In this document: piece after piece, positions 19,096-43,460 of the stretch
How positions within the stretch are numbered: position 1 is the stretch's first letter
Layout of the letters: each line of letters starts with the position of its first letter
NCBI GenBank assembly: GCA_947589475.1
Contig: CANQBO010000004.1
Span: 2,547 to 66,546, forward strand
Length of the DNA: 64,000 nucleotides
DNA from: an uncultured Clostridia bacterium
Lineage (GTDB): Bacteria; Bacillota; Clostridia; Christensenellales; CAG-917
Direction: 5' to 3'
Made by a program: the position numbers and the translations under genes
The notes under the pieces: model-generated
Told to the model about the DNA's origin: nothing
What the model saw: only the letters and a program-made list of their open reading frames with translations
Databases searched by the model: none

Positions 19096-22000
19096 ATGAA
19101 ACGTAAAGGCAAAATATTTATAGCCCTGCTTGCGGTGGCGCTTCTGCTGTGTATCGCGGCAGTCACGCTTGCCGCATGCGATCCGAAAGAGCAATCGATT
19201 GTGGGTCATACAGGCAGATATTACGAGTATAATGGCGGCATCAAAGCCCCGAATCTGTGGGTAGATATTCAAGCCGACGGGTGGGTCGATGACGCAGGGC
19301 TGAGAGGTACATACAAACTCAGCGGGAGCGCCATATCCCTATATTGTGATGGAGAACTTCTGTTTGAAGGCACTCTTGAAAACGGAGTGTTGACAATTTA
19401 TATCTTAGGCGTTCCCACAAAGTACTATAAGGACGGCTTTGGCCCGTCAAGCGGGTCTCAAACGCCGACTACCCCCGACGAAAAGCCGGAAGAGAAACCG
19501 GAAAACACCAAATGTACCGTGACATATCATGCAAACGGCGGGATATTTTCGGGAGATAACGAGATTTACAGCATCACGGTGAATAAAAATTCCAAACTGA
19601 CCGCGCCCACGTCCCCGACTCGCCTCAATCACACATTTTTCGGTTGGTCGAAAAAGTCAAACAGTTCGGACCTATGGAATTTTGATACAGACACTGTCGA
19701 GAGCGACCTCGACCTGTATGCCGTATGGCAACAGCGTTCCGCCGTCATATTCAGCGTTGAAGGCGCAAGCATAGACGGGACGGACATCTTCATGCTTGTT
19801 GACAGAAACACCACTCAAGTGTCTTTGTCAAATATGATAGTATGTAGCAACGATAGCACGTGGGAGCTTTACTATGACAGCCTCGGACAGACAAAGATAC
19901 CCACAAAGATAGCCGCAAGCAAAAACGGGCATCTCAATGACGGCGCAAATGATTTTTGGATCGTCGTCACATCAAAAGATAATGTCCAAACAAATGTATA
20001 TCAGCTCACCGTGTATCGCAGTTATGCCGTCCCTGTCAATTATATGGACGGACTTTCGCTTTTGAAAGCGGAAACGGCATATACGGGATATGAATATTCT
20101 TTGCGTTATACTCCGAATATAAAAGGCTACAAATTTAATGGGTGGAAGATAGATGGCGAAACAGCGACCACTGTCACGCCATGGGGCGCCGTAAATGTGG
20201 ATGTGGACAAAACGGCAAATAAATATCAAGTAAATTTCAATGAAAACGGCGGCACTTTGTCAAGCGGCGATAAAGCCCCTGTGACAGTAACTTATGATGA
20301 CGAATTCGACTTTCCCATCCCGTCTCGCACGGGTTATTCCTTCAAAGGTTGGGAGTATGATGGCAAGCTTTTGTCCGATTTGGGCGGCAATTCGCTCACG
20401 GGTTGGGACATCGCTCAGTCTGTCACCGTAAAGGCGAAGTGGGAAGCAAATCAATACAAAGTGACAATAAAGTCCGACAACGTCGAAATGGGCACAGTTT
20501 CTGATGAGGGCGACCATGAGTGGGACTATGACTCCACCCATACCCTCACAGCCAACACAAATGAGGGGTGCACTTTCATGGGTTGGTATGATAATGACAA
20601 ATTGCTTTCGCGTGAGCTGAATTATCAAATAACCGTGAGCACTACAAATCCGACTTACACCGCGAAGTGGTATAAAATTCAAATTGCCCCCGAAGATAAA
20701 AGTCAAGGCATCACAGTGGAATTAAACAACACATACATAGTAGGACAAGAAGTTTATATTGAAGCAACACCATATCTCGGTTATGATTTTGCAGGTTGGT
20801 ATGTTGATGGCAAAAACCTGTCTCAAGAAGAAGAATATATTTATATAATGCCTGAAAATGAAACAAAGGTCATTGCAAAATTCAGCGTTGTACCCGAAAT
20901 GGCAAATTATACTTTTACATCATCTATGACAGAATGCAATATTACAGGAATTGTTGATACATCTGTTGAAGAGATCATCATACCCGACTATGTGACAGGA
21001 GTCTATTCATATGCATTTGATGAGTGTGACAATGTTACATCAGCCACTATACCTGCAATCGCGACGGAAGCCTTGCCTAAAAACAACTTGACCACAGTAA
21101 CTATTACGAGTGGAGAAATTCACAAGAGGGCATTCTTTTATTGCACAAGTTTGCAGACGGTGACAATAGGCGAAGGCGTTACGAGTATAAGCACTGATGC
21201 ATTCCATTATTGCACAGGTTTGACCGAGATTACTATATCCGACAGCGTGACCAGCATAGACTATCGGGCATTCTATGGTTGCACAGGTTTGACCGAGATT
21301 ACTATTCCCGACAGCGTGACAGGCATAGATGATGATGCATTCGAAGGTTGCTACAAGTTGGTTCATATACGCAATTTGAGTGGAGTTCAAATTTTATCTC
21401 CTGCTTGGATTGGAGAAGTTTTGACTACAAAGGACGCTGAATTTCAAAATAAACTTGAACGAGACGACAACGGCATTTGGACTTATACTGTCGGCGATAC
21501 TGTTTATGCAATAAGATATGACGGTGAAAGCACCGATTTGGATCTTCCTCTCAACGAATCAATCGATGCGATTTATCTGTATGCGTTTTATAACTCTCGT
21601 CTTACATCTGTCATAATTCCCGACGGTGTGACAAGCATAGGTGATTATGCATTCGAGGGTTGCACAAGCTTGACCGAGATAACAATTCCCGACGGTGTGA
21701 CAAGCATAGGTGATTATGCATTCGAGGGTTGCACAAGCTTGACCGAGATAACAATTCCCGACGGTGTGACAAGCATAGGTTATTATGCATTCGCTAGTTG
21801 CACAGGTTTACAAACCGCAAATTGGAATGCTACAAATTGCAAAGTACGCGACTATAGATATTCAATTTTCGCAGGGGATACACAGCTTACAACAGTAAAT
21901 ATAGGAGATAAAGTCCAAACTATTCCTTATTGGACATTCTGTGATTGCACGAGTTTGAAGACAGTCACAATAGGAAAAAGTGTGACAAGCATAGGCATTG

Positions 22001-23802
22001 GAGCATTTTCAGATTGCACATCACTTGAAACAGTCAATTGGAATGCTACAAATTGTACATCCGCAGGACATTCTCCTTATGCCATTTTTAATGGTTGTAT
22101 TATACTTAATGCGGTAAATATAGAAAATGACGTTCAAACAATTCCCGGTTATGCCTTCTACGGTTGCACAGGCTTGACTGAGATAACAATTCCCGACAGC
22201 GTGACAAGCATAGGCGGTAGTGCATTCTCCAATTGCACAGGCTTGCAGACAGTCACTATTGGCGACGGTGTGACAAGCATAGGCGGTAGTGCATTCTCCA
22301 ATTGCACAGGCTTGCAGACAGTCACTATTGGCGACGGTGTGACAAGCATAGGCGGTAGTGCATTCTATAATTGCACAGGCTTGACTGAGATTACTATCCC
22401 CGACAGCGTGACAAGCATAGGCAAATATGCACTCTACGGTTGCACAGGCTTGAGTGAGATATCGATCCCCGACAGCGTGACAAGCATAGGCGAGTCTGCA
22501 TTCTCCGGGTGCAAAGGCTTACAGACTGTCAATTGGAATGCAACAAATTGTACAGAGGTGGGTTCTGATTCCCATTATATTTTCTATGGTTGCACTCAAC
22601 TCACAACAGTAAAGATAGGTGATAACGTACAAACAATTCCCGATTATGCATTCTACGGTTGCACAGGCTTGACTGAGATTACTATCCCCGACAGCGTGAC
22701 AAGCATAGGTTATTATGCATTCTACGGTTGCACAGGCTTGCAGACAGTGACAATAGACGAAGGTGTGCAAAGCATAGGTTATAATGCATTCGAAGGTTGC
22801 ACAGGCATAAAAGTTGCTACTATGCCAGCTTTGGCAATAGGCTATATCCCAAACAAATATAGTCTAACCACTGTTAATATTACAAAAGGCGATATAGGCG
22901 GTAGTGCATTCTCCAATTGCGCAGGCTTGCAGACAGTCGCTATTGGCGACGGTGTGACAAGCATAGGCAAGTCTGCATTCTATAATTGCACAGGCTTGAC
23001 TGAGATTACTATCCCCGACAGCGTGACAAGCATAGGCGGTAGTGCATTCTCCAATTGCACAGGCTTGCAGACAGTCAATTGGAATGCAATAAATTGCACA
23101 TATAATGGAAGTGAATATTATGTATTTACAGGTTGTAATAAACTTACGACGATAAACTTCGATGATAACGTACAAACAATTCCTGCTTCTATATTCTCTA
23201 AGTGTACAAACATAACTAGAGTAAATTATCTCGGAACTCTCAAAGGTTGGTGTGAGATAGAGTTAGGCAACGCATCATCAAATCCTTTGTATGTTGCAAA
23301 CGCTACCAAAGTAGGAAAGGCAAAATTGTATCTAAAAAATGTCGAGGTAACAGGCAATGTGAATATTCCATTGGGAACAACAAAAATAGGCGATCATGCA
23401 TTCTATGGACTTACAGGCTTAACCTCTGTTACTATTCCTGACAGCGTGGAAAGCATAGGCGGTAGTGCATTCTCCAATTGCGCAGGCTTGCAGACAGTCA
23501 CTATTGGCGACGGTGTGACAAGCATAGGCAAGTCTGCATTCTATAATTGCACAGGCTTGAAAGATATATATTATGCGGGAGATAAAACGCCGTGGGAAAA
23601 TATCGAGAAAGGCGAGCGTTGGGACCAATACTGGGTTCAGTTAGATTATTATAGTGGTTCATACTATACCATCAATTATCAACTCCACTACAATTCCACG
23701 GGGCCCGAGGATGAGAGCTCGGCAAGCGAAGCGGCGGCGGTGATTTTACAAAATGCGGTCGTGGATGTGGACGCTCCCAAAGAGTGGGCAAAAGAAAACT
23801 GA
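19096..23802 (+). CDS. BspA-type leucine-rich-repeat surface lipoprotein with InlB B-repeat-like domains
   Basis: Lipobox LAAC; GW-containing repeats (PTRLNHTFFGW, RTGYSFKGW); more than 20 23-aa repeats of type IPDSVTSIGxxAFxxCTGL. Confidence 0.92.
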   Translation: MKRKGKIFIALLAVALLLCIAAVTLAACDPKEQSIVGHTGRYYEYNGGIKAPNLWVDIQADGWVDDAGLRGTYKLSGSAISLYCDGELLFEGTLENGVLTIYILGVPTKYYKDGFGPSSGSQTPTTPDEKPEEKPENTKCTVTYHANGGIFSGDNEIYSITVNKNSKLTAPTSPTRLNHTFFGWSKKSNSSDLWNFDTDTVESDLDLYAVWQQRSAVIFSVEGASIDGTDIFMLVDRNTTQVSLSNMIVCSNDSTWELYYDSLGQTKIPTKIAASKNGHLNDGANDFWIVVTSKDNVQTNVYQLTVYRSYAVPVNYMDGLSLLKAETAYTGYEYSLRYTPNIKGYKFNGWKIDGETATTVTPWGAVNVDVDKTANKYQVNFNENGGTLSSGDKAPVTVTYDDEFDFPIPSRTGYSFKGWEYDGKLLSDLGGNSLTGWDIAQSVTVKAKWEANQYKVTIKSDNVEMGTVSDEGDHEWDYDSTHTLTANTNEGCTFMGWYDNDKLLSRELNYQITVSTTNPTYTAKWYKIQIAPEDKSQGITVELNNTYIVGQEVYIEATPYLGYDFAGWYVDGKNLSQEEEYIYIMPENETKVIAKFSVVPEMANYTFTSSMTECNITGIVDTSVEEIIIPDYVTGVYSYAFDECDNVTSATIPAIATEALPKNNLTTVTITSGEIHKRAFFYCTSLQTVTIGEGVTSISTDAFHYCTGLTEITISDSVTSIDYRAFYGCTGLTEITIPDSVTGIDDDAFEGCYKLVHIRNLSGVQILSPAWIGEVLTTKDAEFQNKLERDDNGIWTYTVGDTVYAIRYDGESTDLDLPLNESIDAIYLYAFYNSRLTSVIIPDGVTSIGDYAFEGCTSLTEITIPDGVTSIGDYAFEGCTSLTEITIPDGVTSIGYYAFASCTGLQTANWNATNCKVRDYRYSIFAGDTQLTTVNIGDKVQTIPYWTFCDCTSLKTVTIGKSVTSIGIGAFSDCTSLETVNWNATNCTSAGHSPYAIFNGCIILNAVNIENDVQTIPGYAFYGCTGLTEITIPDSVTSIGGSAFSNCTGLQTVTIGDGVTSIGGSAFSNCTGLQTVTIGDGVTSIGGSAFYNCTGLTEITIPDSVTSIGKYALYGCTGLSEISIPDSVTSIGESAFSGCKGLQTVNWNATNCTEVGSDSHYIFYGCTQLTTVKIGDNVQTIPDYAFYGCTGLTEITIPDSVTSIGYYAFYGCTGLQTVTIDEGVQSIGYNAFEGCTGIKVATMPALAIGYIPNKYSLTTVNITKGDIGGSAFSNCAGLQTVAIGDGVTSIGKSAFYNCTGLTEITIPDSVTSIGGSAFSNCTGLQTVNWNAINCTYNGSEYYVFTGCNKLTTINFDDNVQTIPASIFSKCTNITRVNYLGTLKGWCEIELGNASSNPLYVANATKVGKAKLYLKNVEVTGNVNIPLGTTKIGDHAFYGLTGLTSVTIPDSVESIGGSAFSNCAGLQTVTIGDGVTSIGKSAFYNCTGLKDIYYAGDKTPWENIEKGERWDQYWVQLDYYSGSYYTINYQLHYNSTGPEDESSASEAAAVILQNAVVDVDAPKEWAKEN
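21616..21780 (+). repeat. Identical 69-bp LRR coding units in tandem
   Basis: 21616-21684 is identical to 21685-21753, with a partial third copy. Confidence 0.9.
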
Positions 23803-23931
23803 CAAAAGATAGACAAATGATTTGAAAAACTAACGCTAAAATCACAAGGCGTCGCTCGGTTGGGCGGCGCCGCGGTTTTTTATGATGGGAGTTGGCGACA
23901 TTTTGCAGTCGAATTTTGGGAAAAGTAGGCG

Positions 23932-24912
23932 TCAGTCGTTTTGATACATTTTGAGGGTTTCTTTGAGTTTGGAGATTATTTTGTTGCGGAGGGAGGCGGG
24001 GGAGAGGACTTCGACGTTGGTGTTGTACTGAAGCGCCCAGTAGATCATAGCCTGTTCGCTTGCGCGCACGCGCACGGTGATGGAGTCGCCCTCCTGTTTG
24101 GTCACGGTGAAGCCGTCGCCGAACCAGTCCGTCAAGTCCTTGACGAAGTTTTTGTCGCACTTTAGAGTCGCGCGGACGGGCTTGTCGCTGAACATATAGG
24201 GCAAGCAGGTGGTGAGGTCGTGATAGTTCAAGCCGTGCTCGAAGCCCGCGTTGTCCGTGACGGGGACGGCGTCGGCGGGCAAGATTTCGGGGCGAGTGAT
24301 CCTGTCTATCCTCAGATAGCTTATCTTTCCGCCCTTATTCTCGTTGCGGAAAACCACATAATAGCGTTGATTGTTGAGTAGCATGCCATATGGCGAGCCG
24401 ACATACCGCTCCTTAAAGAGCAACTTTTTGTCCGTGCCCACGGTGTTGTAGTCAAAGGCTATTTGTTTGCCGCCGTCTATCGCCTCGCCGATTATGTCGA
24501 TGTTCAAAAAGAAATCTTTGTTTTCAAACTTGCCCCAATCGTTGACGGAGTGCACGTGCTTGATGTGCTCGCCCACGTCGGGACCGCCCAGCGCGATGAG
24601 CTTGTCGATAAGATCGGAAGAGTAGCGCGTCCCTATATATTTGGAGCCTTGCACGCTGTCTATGAGCCAGCGTATCTCGTACTCTTCAAGCGCGGGTTCG
24701 TCCTGTATGAGATACACCCCGCGCCGCCTCTCGGACAGCGGATAAAAATCTCTCAGGCGGGAGATGTTGCGCCCGACCGCCTTGCGCTCGCACACCACGC
24801 CGTATTCGTCGTACAGCAGGTCGATGATGCGCTGTTGCGTGAGCGGCTCGTCATAGGACGAGTACTTTTTCAAAATGTTGTAGATTTGGATGAGCAGAGT
24901 TTTTGTCGCCAT
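23932..24912 (-). CDS. WYL domain-containing transcriptional regulator (wHTH-WYL-WCX)
   Basis: N-terminal HTH (PLTQQRIIDLL..CERKAVGRNI), WYL core (SPYGMLLNNQRYYVV..YLRIDRI), WCX end (VEVLSPASLR). Confidence 0.9.
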   Translation of the reverse strand: MATKTLLIQIYNILKKYSSYDEPLTQQRIIDLLYDEYGVVCERKAVGRNISRLRDFYPLSERRRGVYLIQDEPALEEYEIRWLIDSVQGSKYIGTRYSSDLIDKLIALGGPDVGEHIKHVHSVNDWGKFENKDFFLNIDIIGEAIDGGKQIAFDYNTVGTDKKLLFKERYVGSPYGMLLNNQRYYVVFRNENKGGKISYLRIDRITRPEILPADAVPVTDNAGFEHGLNYHDLTTCLPYMFSDKPVRATLKCDKNFVKDLTDWFGDGFTVTKQEGDSITVRVRASEQAMIYWALQYNTNVEVLSPASLRNKIISKLKETLKMYQND

Positions 24913-36848: not shown

Positions 36849-38180
36849 ATGTGTGCAAAGATAGCCGTTGTGGGTTTGGGACAAGGGGGCGCGTGCGCCG
36901 CGTATCACCTTGCGAGAGCGGGGCACGACGTCACGGTTTTCGAGAGGAGCGCAAGAGGCGAGACGGGCTATGAATGGCAGGACGACATACGTTCGGACAT
37001 ATTTTCGCTCTGTGATATGCCCATGCCGAGCGAGGACGTATACGAGCAAAAGCGCAAGTGGCTTTTCGTTTCGCCCAACCGACAACACTCTCTTCCCGTG
37101 CCGCCGCTTCCGCCCATGGAGGAAATATCCGTGCACAGGCGGGGTCTTTGCGAGTACTTCGCGAGGCAGATAGAGGGCGCGGGCGGAAAGCTGAGATTTG
37201 CCACTCCCGTGAGCGCGCTTCTCATCGAAAATGATAAGGTGGCAGGCATTAAGACGGCTGAGGGCGAGGAGCGCTTCGACCTCGTCATAGACGCAAGCGG
37301 CATGAGATCGCCATTTCGCGGACAGCTCCCGAAGAAGTTTTGCGTGCAGGCTATGCCCGAGGATGAGGGCGTACTTTACGGCTACCGCGCGTTTTTCCAT
37401 AGGGTCGCGGGCGCGGATACGCGCGAGAAGGACATTGAGAGCACTATGGTCCTTAAGCATATGGGGAAGGCGGGCATAAGCTGGTGTAACCTCGTCGGCG
37501 AGGACAGAGTGGACGTGCTCATAGGCAGGCTTGGCGGCTTGAGCGACGAGGATATTGCCGAGGCAATGGAGGATCTGAGGGCACATAACGCCATACTGTC
37601 AAGAGATATGTATTTCGGACAGCGCGTGCAGATTTGTTTAAGAGGCACTATACCCGTCGGCGTCGCGGACGGCTACGTCGCGGTGGGGGACAGCGCGTTT
37701 GAGACAATGCCACTCATGGGCAGCGGGATAGAGTCGTCCATGAAGGCGGGCAAGATGCTGGCGGACTGCATAGCCGAAGGAAACGACTTTTCTGCCGTCG
37801 GACTTTGGGGCTATTGGACAAAGTGGATGAAGGAGTTCGGCGCGGGTTTCGCGTTTATAGACGTGCTTAAGAGATGGGCGCTCAACATAGATCCGAAACA
37901 GATAGATTGGGTGTTCGGCGGCGGGCTTATTGAGAAGAGCGACCTCGCGCTTGTAAGCACGGACACGAACGGAGCAAAACCCAAGATACCCGCGAAGTCA
38001 ATATTCAAAAAGATAGGGCTGTTGCTCGGGCGGCCGTCGCTGACCTTCCCCGCGATAGGGTGCGTAGTCAGGGCGCTTAAGGCGAAGAGCGTAGCCGCGC
38101 ATATCCCAAAAAAGTATGACGAAAATAAGATCGCAAAATGGGCGAAAAAATATACAAAACGCCTCTGCGCATGCGAGTAA
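36849..38180 (+). CDS. FAD-dependent oxidoreductase, geranylgeranyl reductase-like
   Basis: VVGLGQGG Rossmann motif, LVIDASG, VGDSA..PLMGSGI. Confidence 0.85.
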   Translation: MCAKIAVVGLGQGGACAAYHLARAGHDVTVFERSARGETGYEWQDDIRSDIFSLCDMPMPSEDVYEQKRKWLFVSPNRQHSLPVPPLPPMEEISVHRRGLCEYFARQIEGAGGKLRFATPVSALLIENDKVAGIKTAEGEERFDLVIDASGMRSPFRGQLPKKFCVQAMPEDEGVLYGYRAFFHRVAGADTREKDIESTMVLKHMGKAGISWCNLVGEDRVDVLIGRLGGLSDEDIAEAMEDLRAHNAILSRDMYFGQRVQICLRGTIPVGVADGYVAVGDSAFETMPLMGSGIESSMKAGKMLADCIAEGNDFSAVGLWGYWTKWMKEFGAGFAFIDVLKRWALNIDPKQIDWVFGGGLIEKSDLALVSTDTNGAKPKIPAKSIFKKIGLLLGRPSLTFPAIGCVVRALKAKSVAAHIPKKYDENKIAKWAKKYTKRLCACE

Positions 38181-38220
38181 AAGAGCTAATTGGGGTCGAT
38201 ATTTTGAGGTCGTGACATCT

Positions 38221-39051
38221 ATGGAGATTACGTACAGAATTGCGAGGATGGGTCTGCACTACTTTGAGGAGCCGTGCATTTCGGGAGAGCGGGGCAGTGG
38301 CACCGTATTCTTTTCGGGTTGCAATTTGAGGTGCGCGTTCTGTCAAAATTTCGAGATCTCGCATGGCGGCAAGGGTATGGAAGTCGCCGAGGAAAAACTT
38401 ATATTCGGCATGAAAAAGCTTGCGGCGGCGGGCGCGCACAACATAAACCTTGTCACGCCGTCAAATTTCACAAATCAGCTGATTCATACGCTTAAAGTTG
38501 CAAAATCGACGCTTAAAGTGCCTGTTGTGTGGAATAGCAGCGGATATGAGACTGTCGAAAATCTGAAAAAACTCGAGGGACTTGTCGATATATTTCTGCC
38601 CGACTTCAAGTATAGCGACGACTCGCTCGCGTGGGAGTATTCGCATGCAAAAAACTATAGTAATGTCGCGCGCGCGGCGATCGCGGAAATGAGGCGGCAA
38701 CAGCCTTACGACGTTTTTGACGGGGACGGCATGATGAAGCGGGGCGTCATAGTCCGCCACCTCGTATTGCCGGGCGCGATCGAAAATACTCGGGGCGTGA
38801 TACGCGACATAGCGGGTATAGACAAGTCCCTGTACGTCAGCGTGATGGGGCAGTATTTTCCCACTCCCGCCGTCAAGGATCACCCTACGCTCGGGCGCAG
38901 GCTGTCGCAAGAGGAGTACGACGCGGCGACGGACGCTTTTTTTGCCGCGGGGCTTGCAAACGGCTTTTCACAGGAGCTTGACAGCGCGATAGAGGACTAT
39001 GTGCCTTCTTTCGACCTCGTCGCTTTGCGCGAATTTTTGGAATTAAGATAA
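38221..39051 (+). CDS. pflX: Radical SAM protein, PflX family
   Basis: HYFEEPCISG..GSGTVFFSGCNLRCAFCQN, NINLVTP, LPDFKY, IVRHLVLPG; ATG 38221 after GAGG. Confidence 0.85.
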   Translation: MEITYRIARMGLHYFEEPCISGERGSGTVFFSGCNLRCAFCQNFEISHGGKGMEVAEEKLIFGMKKLAAAGAHNINLVTPSNFTNQLIHTLKVAKSTLKVPVVWNSSGYETVENLKKLEGLVDIFLPDFKYSDDSLAWEYSHAKNYSNVARAAIAEMRRQQPYDVFDGDGMMKRGVIVRHLVLPGAIENTRGVIRDIAGIDKSLYVSVMGQYFPTPAVKDHPTLGRRLSQEEYDAATDAFFAAGLANGFSQELDSAIEDYVPSFDLVALREFLELR

Positions 39052-39063
39052 TAGGAGGTCGCT

Positions 39064-39597
39064 ATGACAGACGGTATTGTTTTAATGGACGGCGTTATGC
39101 TTGAGAGAACGCTTAAAAGGATCGCTCATGAGATAGTCGAAAAAAACGGAGGGACGGAGGATCTTGTGCTTGTCGGGATAAAGACGCGCGGAGTACCTAT
39201 GGCTAGTCGCATCGCAAACAGCATCGAAACGATCGAAGGCGCGAGACCGCCTCTCGGGTCGCTCGACATCACCCTCTATCGCGACGATCTCTCTCAAATA
39301 GGAGAAGTGCCGACTGTAAAAGGCAGTGAAATTCCTTGTGATATAAGAGATAAAAACGTTGTTCTGCTCGATGATGTCCTCTTCACCGGAAGGACGGTTA
39401 GAGCGGCAATAGAAGCTCTGTTGCATTTCGGACGTCCGCGCACGGTACAGCTTGCCGTGCTTATCGACAGAGGGCACAGGGAGCTGCCGATAAGAGCGGA
39501 CTATGTCGGTAAAAACGTACCTACTTCTTTGCATGAAAGCATTGCCGTGCACTTTTATGAAACGGACGGCGAAAATTGCGTAGCGCTTATTAAATGA
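39064..39597 (+). CDS. pyrR: Pyrimidine regulatory protein / UPRTase PyrR
   Basis: [47 protein letters not shown]. Confidence 0.97.
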
Positions 39598-39674
39598 CTT
39601 TTAGTATATTTAAAGTAATATTCAATAATAGCGCACAAGAATAGCGCACAAGCGGAAATTGGATAGGAGAGTTA

Positions 39675-40094
39675 TTAAAGTTCTTCCTCCGTTATAACTT
39701 CAAATCCTTCTGCGAGCAGGAGACGGGCGGTCATTCCGTTGCCTTCTGTTTTGGTGCCGCTGAAAGTGCCGTCGTAAATCTTTCCTTTGCCGCACGAGGG
39801 GCTGTTCGCTTTTAACACACATAGCGCCACCCGATTATTTTTTGCGATTTCAAGCGCTAAGCGGGCGCCGCGCAAGTATTGTTCGGTGACGTCGTCGCCG
39901 TTTGAAGCGAGTACTTTGTCTCCGACGATCTCCCCGGGGAGCCGCGGAGTAGGCAAGCCGCCGAGCACCTCGGGACATACGGGGATAAGCTCCGCCTCGC
40001 TTGAAAGAGCGAGCGCTTTTTCGTTTTTGCAATTGTCTCCTTTGTAGCGGCAGTTGTATCCTAAAAGGCAAGCGCTTACGAGTATTTTTTTCAT
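39675..40094 (-). CDS. DUF523 / TudS thiouracil desulfidase family protein
   Basis: SACLLG..CRY, PVCPEVLGGL.TPR, SPSCG motifs carrying the conserved cysteines. Confidence 0.9.
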   Translation of the reverse strand: MKKILVSACLLGYNCRYKGDNCKNEKALALSSEAELIPVCPEVLGGLPTPRLPGEIVGDKVLASNGDDVTEQYLRGARLALEIAKNNRVALCVLKANSPSCGKGKIYDGTFSGTKTEGNGMTARLLLAEGFEVITEEEL

Positions 40095-40206
40095 TTTTTC
40101 ACTCCAAAGACAGATAAATCAATTATACACGAAAGCCACATTTTTTGCAATATTCAACTTGATATGCCACGATGCGTGTTTTATGCGACATTTTGTCGGT
40201 TTTTGT

Positions 40207-40333
40207 TTGACTTTGCCGACCGAATATGGTATCTTTCTAGAAGAAAATCTTTAAGAGCGATACGGGATATCGACAAGATTGTGCAAATTCTTCGTAAACG
40301 TTACCTTGTCATATCCTATGGCAAGGTTTTTTT
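40207..40333 (+). promoter_or_regulatory. Promoter plus PyrR-type attenuator of uraA-upp-upp
   Basis: TTGACT-17-TATCTT; stem AATCTT..AAGATT (40246-40280) with CTTTAA and CGGGA loop; terminator 40303-40333; antiterminator pairing GGATATCGACAAG/CTTGTCATATCC. Confidence 0.7.
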
Positions 40334-40375
40334 AAAGGTTTTCACTACTCGGAAATCAATTTAAGGAGATATTTT

Positions 40376-41953
40376 ATGAAACTTGTTTATGATGTCGGCG
40401 ACAGACCGCCGATCAAGCAAAATCTGGTCTTTGCTTTGCAGCAGATCATAGCTATTATGGCAGCGACTTTGCTCGTCCCGATACTTGTCAGCAATTTCGG
40501 GCTGGACTGCGATCCTGCCGCGGCGCTTTTCGGCGCAGGTGCGGGTACGATAGTATATCTGCTTTTTACAAGGTTCAAAAGCCCCGTATTTCTCGGTAGC
40601 TCATTTACGTTTGTAGGCGCTTTGCAGGCGGTCGCGGCACAAAATTACGGATATTGGGGACTCATCATCGGCGTTCTTTTCGCGGCGCTCGTATATGTTA
40701 TCATAGGCGTTATCATTAAATATGTCGGATCGAAGTGGATAAATAAATTGCTTCCTCCCATCATAATCGGACCTATTCTCGCGATCATCGGTCTTTCTCT
40801 CTCGGGCACAGCGGGAAGCTGGTCGACGGGGAACGGCGGCGAAGCTTACAATCTCGTAGCGGTCATTGTGGCGCTGTTCACATTCTTTATGATCGTCTTT
40901 GCCTCCGTAAAAGGAAAGAAAAACATGAAACTCATCCCCTTCATCGTCGGCATAGGCGCGGGTTTGGCTCTTGCGCTTGTGCTCACCGGATTCGGATATA
41001 TCAACGATTCGGCGGCGGCGCTCAAATTCAGACTTGTGGACTTCACTCCCATCGTGAATTGCTTCAAGCCCATTCGCGTTCAAAGCTTCTTAGATTATCC
41101 TAAATTCACGTTCCTCAAGGCTATTATGGACGACACGCCTCGCGCTCTCAACGGCGCCGCGGTCGGCAATCTTGCGCTCCTCTTCATGCCTATTGCGATC
41201 GTGGAGCTTGCTCAGCACATTTCGGATCACAAAAACATTTCAAACATCATCGGCAAAGACGTGCTTGAAAATCCCGGTCTCCACAACACGCTGTTCGGTG
41301 ACGGCGTAGGTTCTGCGGTCGGCGCATTCTTCGGAGGTTGCGCAAACACGACGTATGGCGAGTCCATAGGTTGCGTAGCGCTCACGGGCAACGCTTCTAC
41401 ATCGACGATTTTGATCGCGTCAATAGGTTGCTTGATCATATCGTTCTTCTCACCTTTTGTAGCGCTTATCAACATGGTCCCCAAATGCGTCATAGGCGGC
41501 GCGTGCATCGCTCTGTACGGTTTCATTTCCGTCAGCGGTCTCAACATGTTGCGCGGCGTCGATCTCAACGACCATAGAAATCTTTATCCCGTCGCGGCGA
41601 TCCTCGTCATTGGCGTTGGCGGAATAACCCTCGATTTCGGTTATAACGCAATGGCAAACGGCGGTAAGGGCGGCGCGGCATTCCAACTTACATCTTTGGC
41701 GGTAGCGCTCATAGTAGGCGTGCTCATCAACCTCTTTACTCATAGCGGCAAATCCGGCAAAGCGGAAGAGGAGTCGGCAGACGGCGCGGAATGCGAGACC
41801 GACGCAAAGGATGGACAGACGGTGTTTGAGGAAGCGGCGGCGGACGATACGACCGAGCCGACTCAAGACGACGCTTGTGACAACGAGTCCGAGAGCAGCG
41901 ATCCGCAAGAGGACGTTTCGGCAGATAAGCCCGCAACGGACAATAAGGAATAG
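40376..41953 (+). CDS. uraA: Uracil permease (NCS2/NAT family)
   Basis: FALQQ, PVFLGSSF, NTTYGESIG signature; acidic C-terminal tail. Confidence 0.9.
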   Translation: MKLVYDVGDRPPIKQNLVFALQQIIAIMAATLLVPILVSNFGLDCDPAAALFGAGAGTIVYLLFTRFKSPVFLGSSFTFVGALQAVAAQNYGYWGLIIGVLFAALVYVIIGVIIKYVGSKWINKLLPPIIIGPILAIIGLSLSGTAGSWSTGNGGEAYNLVAVIVALFTFFMIVFASVKGKKNMKLIPFIVGIGAGLALALVLTGFGYINDSAAALKFRLVDFTPIVNCFKPIRVQSFLDYPKFTFLKAIMDDTPRALNGAAVGNLALLFMPIAIVELAQHISDHKNISNIIGKDVLENPGLHNTLFGDGVGSAVGAFFGGCANTTYGESIGCVALTGNASTSTILIASIGCLIISFFSPFVALINMVPKCVIGGACIALYGFISVSGLNMLRGVDLNDHRNLYPVAAILVIGVGGITLDFGYNAMANGGKGGAAFQLTSLAVALIVGVLINLFTHSGKSGKAEEESADGAECETDAKDGQTVFEEAAADDTTEPTQDDACDNESESSDPQEDVSADKPATDNKE

Positions 41954-42010
41954 AACATTTATGAAGATGTGGTCCATAGATTTTTGGGCCACATCTATTT
42001 AATTTTGGAT

Positions 42011-42652
42011 ATGGAAGATTTTTTGAAAAATGTAACGATATTGCATCATCCGCTCATAGCGCACAAGATCACGCATCTTTGCGATATAAACACGCCCACA
42101 AAAGAATTCAGAGAGATCGTAAGCGAATTGAGCATGCTTATGGGATATGAAGCGTACAGGGATCTCAATACTAAACTTATTGAGATACAAGCGCCGCTTT
42201 CCAAATTCATGTCACCGGTTATAGACGAAAAGATAGCCATCGTCCCCATACTTCGCGCGGGTTTAGGTATGGTCGACGGATTGACCGCTCTTTTCCCGAA
42301 CGCGCAGATAGGGCATATCGGACTGTATCGCGATGAAGAGACTCTCGAGCCGTGCGAGTACTATTGCAAACTTCCGCTCGATTGCGTCGACGGGCAATGT
42401 ATAGTCGTTGACCCCGCGCTTGCTACGGGTGGTTCGGCGGCCGCGGCTGTGCAGATGATCAAAAACCGTGGATTTAAAAACATCAAGCTTATGTGCCTTA
42501 TTGCGGCGCCCGAGGGCATAAAAAAAGTGGTCTCTCAACATCCCGATATAAAAATTTATGTCGCGCATTACGCTGACGCGCCCCTGAATGAAAAAGGCTA
42601 TATTTTGACGGCATTCGGCGACGCCGGCGACCGTATTTTCGGAACTAAATAA
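42011..42652 (+). CDS. upp: Uracil phosphoribosyltransferase, divergent paralog
   Basis: HPLI.HK, PILRAGLGM, GHIGLYRDE, DPALATGGS, GDAGDRIFGTK; substitutions in the uracil pocket. Confidence 0.85.
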   Translation: MEDFLKNVTILHHPLIAHKITHLCDINTPTKEFREIVSELSMLMGYEAYRDLNTKLIEIQAPLSKFMSPVIDEKIAIVPILRAGLGMVDGLTALFPNAQIGHIGLYRDEETLEPCEYYCKLPLDCVDGQCIVVDPALATGGSAAAAVQMIKNRGFKNIKLMCLIAAPEGIKKVVSQHPDIKIYVAHYADAPLNEKGYILTAFGDAGDRIFGTK

Positions 42653-42663
42653 GAGGTGAAATT

Positions 42664-43302
42664 ATGCAAAAATATGAAAACGTAACGATTTTCGATCATC
42701 CGCTCATAAGACACAAGGTCGCCATCCTGCGCGACAAAAATACGGGCATGAAGGAGTTTCGCGAGCTTGTCGAGGAAATTACCACGCTCATGGTTTTCGA
42801 GGCGTTTAAGGACGTGCCCACAAAGACAGTTATGGTGGAAACTCCGCTTGAGACGACAGAGCAGACTATGGTCGCGGACAATGCCGTCACCATAGTTCCC
42901 ATTCTGCGCGCGGGCTTAGGCATGGTCAACGGCGTGCATACGCTGTTCCCGACGGCACGCGTAGGGCATATCGGCCTCTATCGCGACGAGGAAACGCTGG
43001 AGCCGCACGAATACTATTGCAAACTTCCCGACGGCATTGAAAACAGCGTCGTCATCCTGCTCGATCCCATGCTCGCAACGGGCGGCAGCGCGGTAGGAGC
43101 GATAGACCTTCTAAAGAAGCGCGGATGCAAAAACATCCGCCTCATGAACATCATAGGCGTGCCGCAGGGCGTCGAGACCGTGCATAAGGCGCACCCCGAC
43201 GTCAAGATCTACGTGTCCACCCTCGACCGTCAACTCAACGACGTCGGCTACATCCTCCCGGGACTCGGCGACGCCGGCGATCGTCTCTTCGGCACGAAGT
43301 AA
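42664..43302 (+). CDS. upp: Uracil phosphoribosyltransferase, canonical
   Basis: DPMLATGGS, GYILPGLGDAGDRLFGTK. Confidence 0.97.
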   Translation: MQKYENVTIFDHPLIRHKVAILRDKNTGMKEFRELVEEITTLMVFEAFKDVPTKTVMVETPLETTEQTMVADNAVTIVPILRAGLGMVNGVHTLFPTARVGHIGLYRDEETLEPHEYYCKLPDGIENSVVILLDPMLATGGSAVGAIDLLKKRGCKNIRLMNIIGVPQGVETVHKAHPDVKIYVSTLDRQLNDVGYILPGLGDAGDRLFGTK

Positions 43303-43313
43303 TATCGGTTATT

Positions 43314-43460
43314 ATACGTGTGGCTACTCGCCCCACACCCTCGGCAAGGGGTTTCACCCCCTGCACCCAAAGCTAAAAACGCGCAAACTCAAGCTCTTGC
43401 ATCGCTTGGTTTGCGCGTTTTTGATTGATTGTAAACGTCAAAACTCCTGCGTGAGACCTT
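43314..43460 (+). repeat. Composite 3' element copy 2 after upp (includes terminator)
   Basis: Collinear with 12891-13030; stem GCGCAAACTCAAG/CTTGGTTTGCGC then GTTTTT. Confidence 0.8.

Follow-up and report, generated by a model that had tools for sequence, protein, structure and literature searches.

Why should a bacterium keep two genes for uracil phosphoribosyltransferase (Upp) side by side, one of them altered at positions that are fixed in canonical Upps, next to genes for a permease, a DUF523 protein and the regulator PyrR? The question is raised by a locus in a 64,000-nucleotide stretch of DNA (hereafter the window; all positions refer to it) from an uncultured Clostridia bacterium of the CAG-917 lineage (GenBank assembly GCA_947589475.1, contig CANQBO010000004.1). 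A sequence-only reading had named these five genes, each of which the open reading frame list and profile scans place where it put them, and had proposed that they, with two tandem upp genes among them, might salvage thio-pyrimidines. Surveying related loci, we find that the conserved unit is TudS (the DUF523 protein) plus permease plus variant Upp, often with PyrR, rather than the tandem upp pair. From comparison of these sequences we propose, with moderate confidence, that pyrR, tudS, a variant NCS2 permease and the variant Upp make up an accessory cassette for thiouracil salvage. The features of the locus are as follows.

39064..39597, plus strand: pyrR, pyr attenuation regulator and weak uracil phosphoribosyltransferase (NCBIfam NF003549, 247.1 bits against a cut-off of 138)
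39675..40094, minus strand: tudS (DUF523), predicted [4Fe-4S] desulfidase of thiouracil or 4-thio-uridine monophosphate (4-thio-UMP) (PF04463, 152.7 bits against a cut-off of 34.7)
40122..40150, minus strand: promoter-like site 5' of tudS (TTGCAA, 17 nucleotides, TATAAT), 10/12 in a consensus scan and a pattern match only
40207..40235, plus strand: promoter-like site for the permease-upp operon (TTGACT, 17 nucleotides, TATCTT, with TG), from the consensus scan
40244..40336, plus strand: candidate PyrR-type transcription attenuator, with a binding-type hairpin at about 40246-40280, a terminator hairpin at 40303-40327 and then a T run
40376..41953, plus strand: NCS2/UraA-type permease of a variant subfamily (PF00860, 209.6 bits against a cut-off of 27)
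41965..41996, plus strand: 12-bp hairpin in the gap between permease and upp1, from a sequence scan
42011..42652, plus strand: upp1, DPAL-type Upp paralog (A136; T200-A201-F202; C24, A61, G128, P191), from profiles and alignments
42664..43302, plus strand: upp2, resident canonical Upp (TIGR01091, 286.8 bits)

The window's assembly comprises 1.89 Mb in 33 contigs and is 97% complete. Genome-wide, upp1 and upp2 are the only two Upp genes and tudS the only TudS gene; de novo pyr genes are present elsewhere. The DNA runs that contain the stretch are labelled as rabbit gut metagenomes, and at least 0.31 of its sampled words occur in two studies other than the possible source.

The variant Upp

The products of upp1 and upp2 are 56% identical, and the motifs attributed to them in the sequence-only reading are indeed there: DPALATGGS and GYILTAFGDAGDR in upp1, DPMLATGGS and GYILPGLGDAGDR in upp2. 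An extra residue sits right before the loop in upp1 (VAHYADAPLNE versus VS-TLDRQLND in upp2). Upp1 scores lower than upp2 against each of three family profiles, with 241.3 versus 286.8 bits for TIGR01091 (cut-off 208.35), 253.2 versus 286.2 bits for NF001097 (cut-off 114) and 226 versus 264.4 bits for PF14681 (cut-off 27). The gene was correctly recognized by the earlier reading but not its start: we place this at the ATG at 42011 rather than the GTG at 41969, because homologues begin at that ATG, with M1 conserved in at least 90% of them and MEDFLKNV as a common N-terminus.

Are the unusual residues of upp1 mere drift? The canonical base-pocket residues, the Met of DPML and the Pro-Gly-Leu before GD, which we take to line the uracil pocket, are missing from upp1. 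We compared 141 DPAL-type Upps with 82 canonical (DPML) ones, sorting them into groups by the M/A residue; at each of the four positions all canonical sequences agree (M, P, G and L, 82/82 in every case). The DPAL type has T in place of P (125 of 141), A in place of G (123) and F in place of L (129), that is T200, A201 and F202 of upp1. Four further residues travel with A136: C24 (versus R), A61 (versus T), G128 (versus K or R) and P191. Judged from this comparison, the differences of upp1 at the four canonical positions are not chance drift.

ILRAG, LYRDE, VDPALATGGS and GDAGDR of upp1 align with solved Upps, and 28 DPAL sequences agree without exception in R82, R107, D134, P135, T139, G140, S142, D204 and D207. 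The claim that this paralog retains its phosphoribosyl pyrophosphate (PRPP) and catalytic motifs was well founded, given an invariant PRPP loop, flexible-loop Arg-Asp and GDAGDR. In MtUPRT the catalytic or PRPP-binding residues are Arg77, Arg102 and Asp198 (PMC3570474).

The DPAL type is also a lineage of its own. The best 120 matches in a collection of 5.8 billion proteins comprise 113 DPAL sequences, 5 DPML sequences and 2 without the motif, and nearly all of the 113 share the T/S-A/G-F/A loop with the extra preceding residue. A quick IQ-TREE run on 112 Upps unites the DPAL proteins in one clade (30 rows; Shimodaira-Hasegawa-like approximate likelihood-ratio test (SH-aLRT) support 99; stem length 0.52) and places the canonical Upps of the same genomes elsewhere, where they follow their hosts. 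The clade is compact, since it accounts for one full and one partial representative among the best 150 at 50% clustering.

Relaxed selection, which the sequence-only reading had named as a danger to its own proposal, is not what we observe. The ratio of non-synonymous to synonymous substitution (dN/dS) is 0.004-0.088 among upp1 orthologues (13/21 pairs computable) and 0.030-0.082 for canonical upp2 (7/10 pairs), values that are rough because dS exceeds 1. With dN/dS as low as that of upp2, upp1 as a pseudogene or a gene under relaxed selection is rejected. By these measures the variant Upp is a conserved subfamily under purifying selection and not a decaying copy. Nor does it stand in for the canonical enzyme, of which it is a paralog: a canonical Upp is also present in 27/30 DPAL genomes, the other three, in which only the DPAL copy was seen, being metagenome-assembled genomes (MAGs) of unknown completeness.

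Two other departures from the canonical sequence came to light. Six Oscillospiraceae-like genomes with both canonical and DPAL Upps (G024, G025, G027, G018, G016 and also G023) carry a third type as an extra copy (MDLMLATG..., LYI[IV]PGIGDGGDR), which forms its own clade (SH-aLRT 100). Neither TudS nor a permease nor pyrR was found near it in the five loci fetched (L117:1786-2418, L118, L119, L120 and L121). P0127, a 220-residue Upp-family representative with the loop GRIDKCGGDAGDR and no DPxL motif by regular expression, may be a further pocket variant.

Genes inherited with the variant Upp

What accompanies upp1? Scanning one genome per species yielded 80 loci, 30 with a DPAL Upp and 50 with a canonical Upp only. 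TudS lies within the locus in 29/30 of the former and 0/50 of the latter, both by tblastn and with a hidden Markov model built from module TudS proteins. The sole exception, L027, is a 3.2-kb contig from a genome in which a contig begins with a TudS fragment. Only four gene families are widely shared in the 5 kb around the DPAL gene: the permease (28 loci), Upp (28), TudS (27) and PyrR (13). The family that comes after them reaches 6 loci. TudS does occur in 7 of the 50 genomes with a canonical locus, in none of them with upp, permease or pyrR within 1.5 kb. The suspected tie between DUF523 and the first paralog is thus supported by synteny (29/30 related loci versus 0/50) and, as described below, by matching presence and absence within the genus.

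The trio of TudS, permease and variant Upp is kept together across at least seven gene orders. In the window type, tudS points away from permease-upp1; in another, permease, tudS and upp1 share a strand in this order; in a third, tudS-pyrR and upp1-permease diverge. A canonical upp directly follows the variant upp in only 5/30 loci, and the tandem pair as a unit, as originally envisaged, dissolves, in the window's genus, into a cassette that sits beside a resident upp. We also looked for TudS as a fusion partner among long representatives matching the Upp profile and found none; the partners there are a permease, a low-molecular-weight phosphatase, RpiB, an amino-acid-kinase fragment and a radical-S-adenosylmethionine (radical-SAM) fragment. 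Fusions of canonical Upps to an NCS2 permease (630 residues), to a low-molecular-weight phosphotyrosine phosphatase and to RpiB are found in the metagenomic representatives P0125, P0128, P0142, P0143 and P0150.

The distribution within the window's genus bears on how the locus came about. The DPAL DNA motif is present in 4/24 other genus genomes; TudS and PyrR are found in the same four, with TudS and the motif 2.3-2.5 kb apart on one contig. These four overlap with the loci already counted, so that the new information lies in the 20 congeners that lack all three. Elsewhere in the order, 16 genomes of other families were compared: the motif is found in none, TudS in 9 and PyrR in 11. In all four module-less congeners examined, the same site holds genes for a flavin adenine dinucleotide (FAD) oxidoreductase, a radical-SAM protein and a permease of the canonical type, which has Glu at the key position and is 44-47% identical to that of the window, as well as a canonical upp, to which upp2 is 75-91% identical. 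Where these congeners have the canonical-type permease, the window carries pyrR, tudS, the variant permease and upp1. By position and similarity, then, upp2 is the resident upp and lies outside the cassette, and the upp genes are in tandem because the cassette sits beside it. A class-wide scan for the motif pattern scored 0/400 other sampled genomes; as the pattern catches only 24/30 known DPAL loci, this speaks for rarity, not absence. The cassette is rare overall.

Three observations concern the genus and the surroundings of the locus. PyrR was not found (E <= 1e-20) in 20/24 congeneric genomes (G481-G504). In the stretch 36849-39051, the open reading frame of the FAD oxidoreductase (36849-38180) overlaps that of a radical-SAM activase-like protein (from 38116) by 65 nucleotides; the latter probably starts later, because homology to relatives begins near residue 38-40. 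In module-less congeners, too, these two genes occur in synteny with upp. Further off, window positions 20001-24000 have a guanine-plus-cytosine content of 0.42-0.44 versus about 0.52 elsewhere and may be a foreign island.

The permease is of the UraA type, as the sequence-only reading had it, which nevertheless missed that this protein, too, is remodelled. In an alignment to E. coli UraA, Gln280 takes the position of Glu241. All 28 permeases at DPAL loci have Gln280, Glu277 and Thr78, whereas all 35 permeases beside canonical Upps have Glu at 280, Val or Thr at 277 and Ala at 78. Both sets of permeases share the equivalents of UraA Phe73, Gly289 and Glu290 (window Phe77, Gly328 and Glu329); of the full set of UraA substrate residues (Glu241, Glu290, Phe73, Gly289) the window permease has lost Glu241 to Gln. 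Its scores of 239.8 bits for the uracil-permease equivalog NF007995 and 226.8 bits for TIGR00801 fall below the respective cut-offs of 477 and 291.8. In UraA, Glu241 is functionally essential, hydrogen-bonding uracil N3 and reaching O4 via Wat1, a water shared with Ser72 (PMC5539350). Because Glu241 reads N3 and O4, the change falls at the base edge that bears the sulfur of 4-thiouracil. No second uracil-type permease was detected in the window genome with a canonical query.

Some traits of the permease gene and its 3' flank may be recorded here. The protein ends in an acidic, low-complexity tail (E, D, S, T) of about 70 residues (window 41740-41953) that E. coli UraA does not have; long C-termini occur in its relatives as well (median 483 residues). 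No obvious ribosome-binding site for upp1 follows the hairpin at 41965-41996. Each of the 7 close relatives folded has a strong hairpin in this position too, built from a different stem sequence, and this element may serve in processing, stability or partial termination.

Could the cassette be under PyrR control? In 13/30 loci pyrR adjoins the module. The tudS-permease spacer of the window measures 281 nucleotides and has promoter-like sites on both strands, the TTGAC box being conserved in 6/6 aligned leaders. So is the leader hairpin in 6 leaders, with two both-sides changes at one pair; hairpin and terminator are common to the window and L007-L013, where the hairpin occurs once per locus. 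When the leader alone (181 nucleotides) was searched, RF00515 was the best Rfam match, at 29.5 bits (E 0.014) over the full model. The pre-permease spacer of L015, an Anaerovoracaceae-type module, matches RF00515 at 45.9 bits (E 1.8e-5), its loop being close to the consensus. Weak RF00515 matches elsewhere in the genome resemble plain terminators. GACAAG of the hairpin could pair with CTTGTC, the 5' arm of the terminator, as a putative antiterminator, which would follow the logic of a PyrR attenuator. Since pyrR is co-inherited with the cassette and the leaders give PyrR-type matches, PyrR control is likely in at least two lineages. The earlier suggestion of such control is thereby upheld as far as co-inheritance and a PyrR-type attenuator in the permease leader go, and weakened by an attenuator that scores below Rfam's gathering level. 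At the other end of the locus a weak match to Clostridiales-2 RNA lies 3' of upp2 on the minus strand (43282-43378; 20.9 bits versus a gathering score of 58.6, E 0.5) and is probably not significant.

A proposed thiouracil pathway and its rivals

What, then, might the cassette do? TudS of the window aligns with PDB 6z92 at E 2.4e-31. Its C9, C40 and C101 correspond to the cluster ligands Cys10, Cys43 and Cys104, its E42, S98, P99 and S100 to Glu45, Ser101, Pro102 and Ser103, and its R16, Y17 and Y107 to Arg17, Tyr18 and Tyr110, residues with roles named in PMC10611767. All of them but S100 are invariant in 29/29 module TudS proteins, and the tudS product is predicted to be a [4Fe-4S] desulfidase. 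For TudS, kcat/Km with 4-thio-UMP is 2650- and 2230-fold that with 4-thiouracil; Arg17 holds the phosphate, and the 2-thio isomers are not specifically bound (PMC10611767). Given this roughly 2000-fold preference, the free base must be phosphoribosylated to be a good TudS substrate, and the order of import, phosphoribosylation and desulfurisation put forward in the sequence-only reading fits the published kinetics. Canonical Upp is known to put 4-thiouracil into S. aureus RNA, which C. difficile TudS prevents (PMC12210855).

The pathway would run as follows. Under pyrimidine scarcity PyrR would release the leader attenuator, so that the permease-upp1(-upp2) transcript reads through. The variant permease would import 4-thiouracil, and probably uracil too; the DPAL-type Upp, with its reshaped base pocket, would join thiouracil and PRPP to give 4-thio-UMP; and TudS would strip the sulfur at its [4Fe-4S] cluster, leaving UMP. 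Of all this, the genes, their motifs, their joint inheritance and the purifying selection are observed here, and the chemistry of TudS with its liking for 4-thio-UMP is published; what the permease carries, which base the variant Upp uses and that PyrR binds the leader we infer from the proteins and leader described above. More tentatively, the DPAL clade may be a natural thiouracil phosphoribosyltransferase which, with the Gln280 permease, TudS and PyrR, forms a mobile, pyrimidine-starvation-induced pathway by which some gut Clostridia live on 4-thiouracil shed from the tRNA of other bacteria, turning a compound toxic to TudS-less competitors into UMP.

Several points weigh against this proposal. 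The substrates of the DPAL Upp clade and of the Gln280 permease clade are deduced from sequence, and our putative structural reading of the changes Met to Ala and Pro-Gly-Leu to Thr-Ala-Phe draws on what is generally known of UPRT structures. In T. gondii UPRT, uracil O2 and N3 are reportedly read by backbone atoms and O4 via a water. The AlphaFold model of upp1 (predicted local distance difference test (pLDDT) score 88.5) is least confident in the variant loop: from residue 191 onward, its last three blocks of ten residues score 78, 56 and 39. Essentially a single origin of the module underlies its Upp, its permease and its TudS, and the locus counts therefore show retention of linkage rather than independent events. 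The variant permease probably still carries uracil, since no other uracil-type permease was detected in the genome, and it may not be thiouracil-specific. On the regulatory side, a scan at the Rfam gathering level gave no match of any kind in the window and no PyrR site in 11 module loci, both RF00515 matches (29.5 and 45.9 bits) staying below the gathering score of 54, and no RF00515 match lies upstream of the permease in L028, an Oscillospiraceae-type locus. The leader core is unique in its own genome at up to 6 substitutions, so that no regulon can be defined. Finally, a dedicated Upp is not strictly required, because canonical Upp already accepts 4-thiouracil (PMC12210855). A complex prediction for upp1 with TudS, as might allow channelling of 4-thio-UMP, scored 0.00 in both runs and weighs neither way.

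How do other explanations fare? In silico the pocket change is ambiguous in direction: bulk is lost with Met to Ala but gained at two of the three altered loop positions, with Gly to Ala and Leu to Phe. One might then imagine that TudS acts on the free base after import and that the DPAL-type Upp takes uracil and excludes thiouracil, thereby avoiding toxic 4-thio-UMP. That 4-thiouracil is toxic through Upp (PMC12210855), and that TudS does act on the free base, if weakly (PMC10611767), would suit such an arrangement. However, exclusion would be undone by the canonical upp, which is kept in 27/30 genomes and in the window lies 12 nucleotides downstream of upp1; moreover, TudS favours the nucleotide by two to three orders of magnitude, and the Arg that binds the phosphate never varies among module TudS proteins. 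We consider an excluding Upp unlikely. Another possibility is that the three proteins are adapted to some other pyrimidine, sulfur-bearing or modified in another way, such as 2-thiouracil or a 5-substituted 2-thiouracil from wobble-base turnover. Permease, Upp and TudS do each differ from their characterised counterparts, TudS of the module being but a distant relative of TudS_A (E 2.4e-31), the enzyme that has been studied, and TudS enzymes support growth on 2-thiouracil in vivo. Yet the change in the permease concerns the side of the base that bears N3 and O4 and not the O2 side, and the catalytic and substrate-stacking residues of TudS are all unchanged, which makes this substrate, too, an improbable one.

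If there had been no change of specificity at all, the locus would be an ordinary uracil permease-upp operon of one lineage that by chance travels with tudS, its substitutions being neutral, regulatory or related to oligomerisation. Permease-upp pairs are indeed common (35/50 canonical loci), both Upps pass their equivalog cut-offs, and no uracil-type permease besides the variant one was detected in the genome. It is difficult to reconcile this with Upp positions that are altered here and invariant in 82/82 canonical Upps compared, with a permease change at a functionally essential substrate-binding residue of UraA, or with TudS in 0/50 canonical loci; and a second, canonical Upp in 27/30 genomes is hard to explain if the jobs are identical. 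We regard unchanged specificity as quite improbable. Least credible, and very unlikely indeed, is the idea, left open in the sequence-only reading, that upp1 is a regulatory or structural subunit forming heteromers with canonical Upp. Upps are oligomers, according to a review, and the two upp genes are adjacent in the window and in 5/30 related loci. The wider comparison brought nothing in favour of this idea: in most module genomes the canonical upp is on another contig or far off, three MAGs show the DPAL copy only, and the catalytic and PRPP-binding motifs of upp1 are all conserved under strong purifying selection.

Were the thiouracil-salvage pathway to prove correct, the DPAL type would be the first member of the Upp family with an evolved non-uracil specificity, gut bacteria would possess a complete, regulated pathway for a modified base, and the retention of a second Upp would be explained. 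The proposal also yields residue-level hypotheses of selectivity, for Upp at A136 and T200-A201-F202 and for the NCS2 permease at Q280, E277 and T78, and a candidate enzyme that would be naturally tuned for 4-thiouracil tagging of RNA.

Relation to known systems

Each part of the cassette belongs to a known family, and TudS-based use of thiouracil is already known. In the parts of the literature searched, to which Munneke et al. 2025 (Cell Host Microbe) did not belong, we found no description of a TudS-linked dedicated Upp or permease. Module TudS is of the same family as the proteins of Pseudomonas and C. difficile (PDB 6Z92-6Z96) and has all their cluster ligands and catalytic residues. The published role of those proteins is to use or detoxify 4-thiouracil; here TudS is part of a co-inherited cassette, although in 9/16 genomes from other families of the same order it occurs without the DPAL motif. 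E. coli UraA (PDB 3QE7, 5XLS) and the window permease share the NCS2 fold and the Phe73, Gly289 and Glu290 equivalents. The change of Glu241 to Gln, the new Glu three residues earlier and the change of Ala74 to Thr are confined to the module-linked permease clade, whereas UraA His245 is Asp both in the window permease and in its canonical neighbours.

The regulatory arrangement has its counterpart in the PyrR-attenuated pyrimidine operon of B. subtilis, pyrR-pyrP-pyrB and so on. As in such operons of Bacillota, and in uraA-upp operons, the gene for PyrR lies beside that for a uracil-type permease, and the leader predicted in the window likewise comprises an anti-antiterminator hairpin, an antiterminator and a terminator. 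Those operons control de novo pyr genes, whereas the genes of the cassette would serve salvage and desulfuration; the hairpin loop of the window departs from the consensus of the PyrR site (29.5 bits versus a gathering score of 54); and PyrR, unlike in those systems, was found in the window's genus only in cassette-bearing genomes.

Of known systems, canonical Upp comes closest to upp1 itself. With the enzyme of Bacillus caldolyticus (PDB 1I5E) it has full-length homology (E 5e-74) and the same fold family, and it shares the PRPP motif, the flexible-loop Arg-Asp and the C-terminal GDAGDR. Canonical Upps have the Met of DPML and Pro-Gly-Leu where upp1 has Ala and Thr-Ala-Phe, an extra residue, and C24, A61, G128 and P191; upp1 stands in a separate clade, is a second copy in 27/30 genomes and is linked to TudS in 29/30 loci. 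One canonical enzyme is already associated with thiouracil: Toxoplasma gondii UPRT, used for the 4-thiouracil tagging of RNA (Cleary 2005, cited in PMC4536494), is said to make 4-thio-UMP from 4-thiouracil as a side activity of a canonical pocket. The DPAL clade, by comparison, may be naturally tuned to 4-thiouracil.

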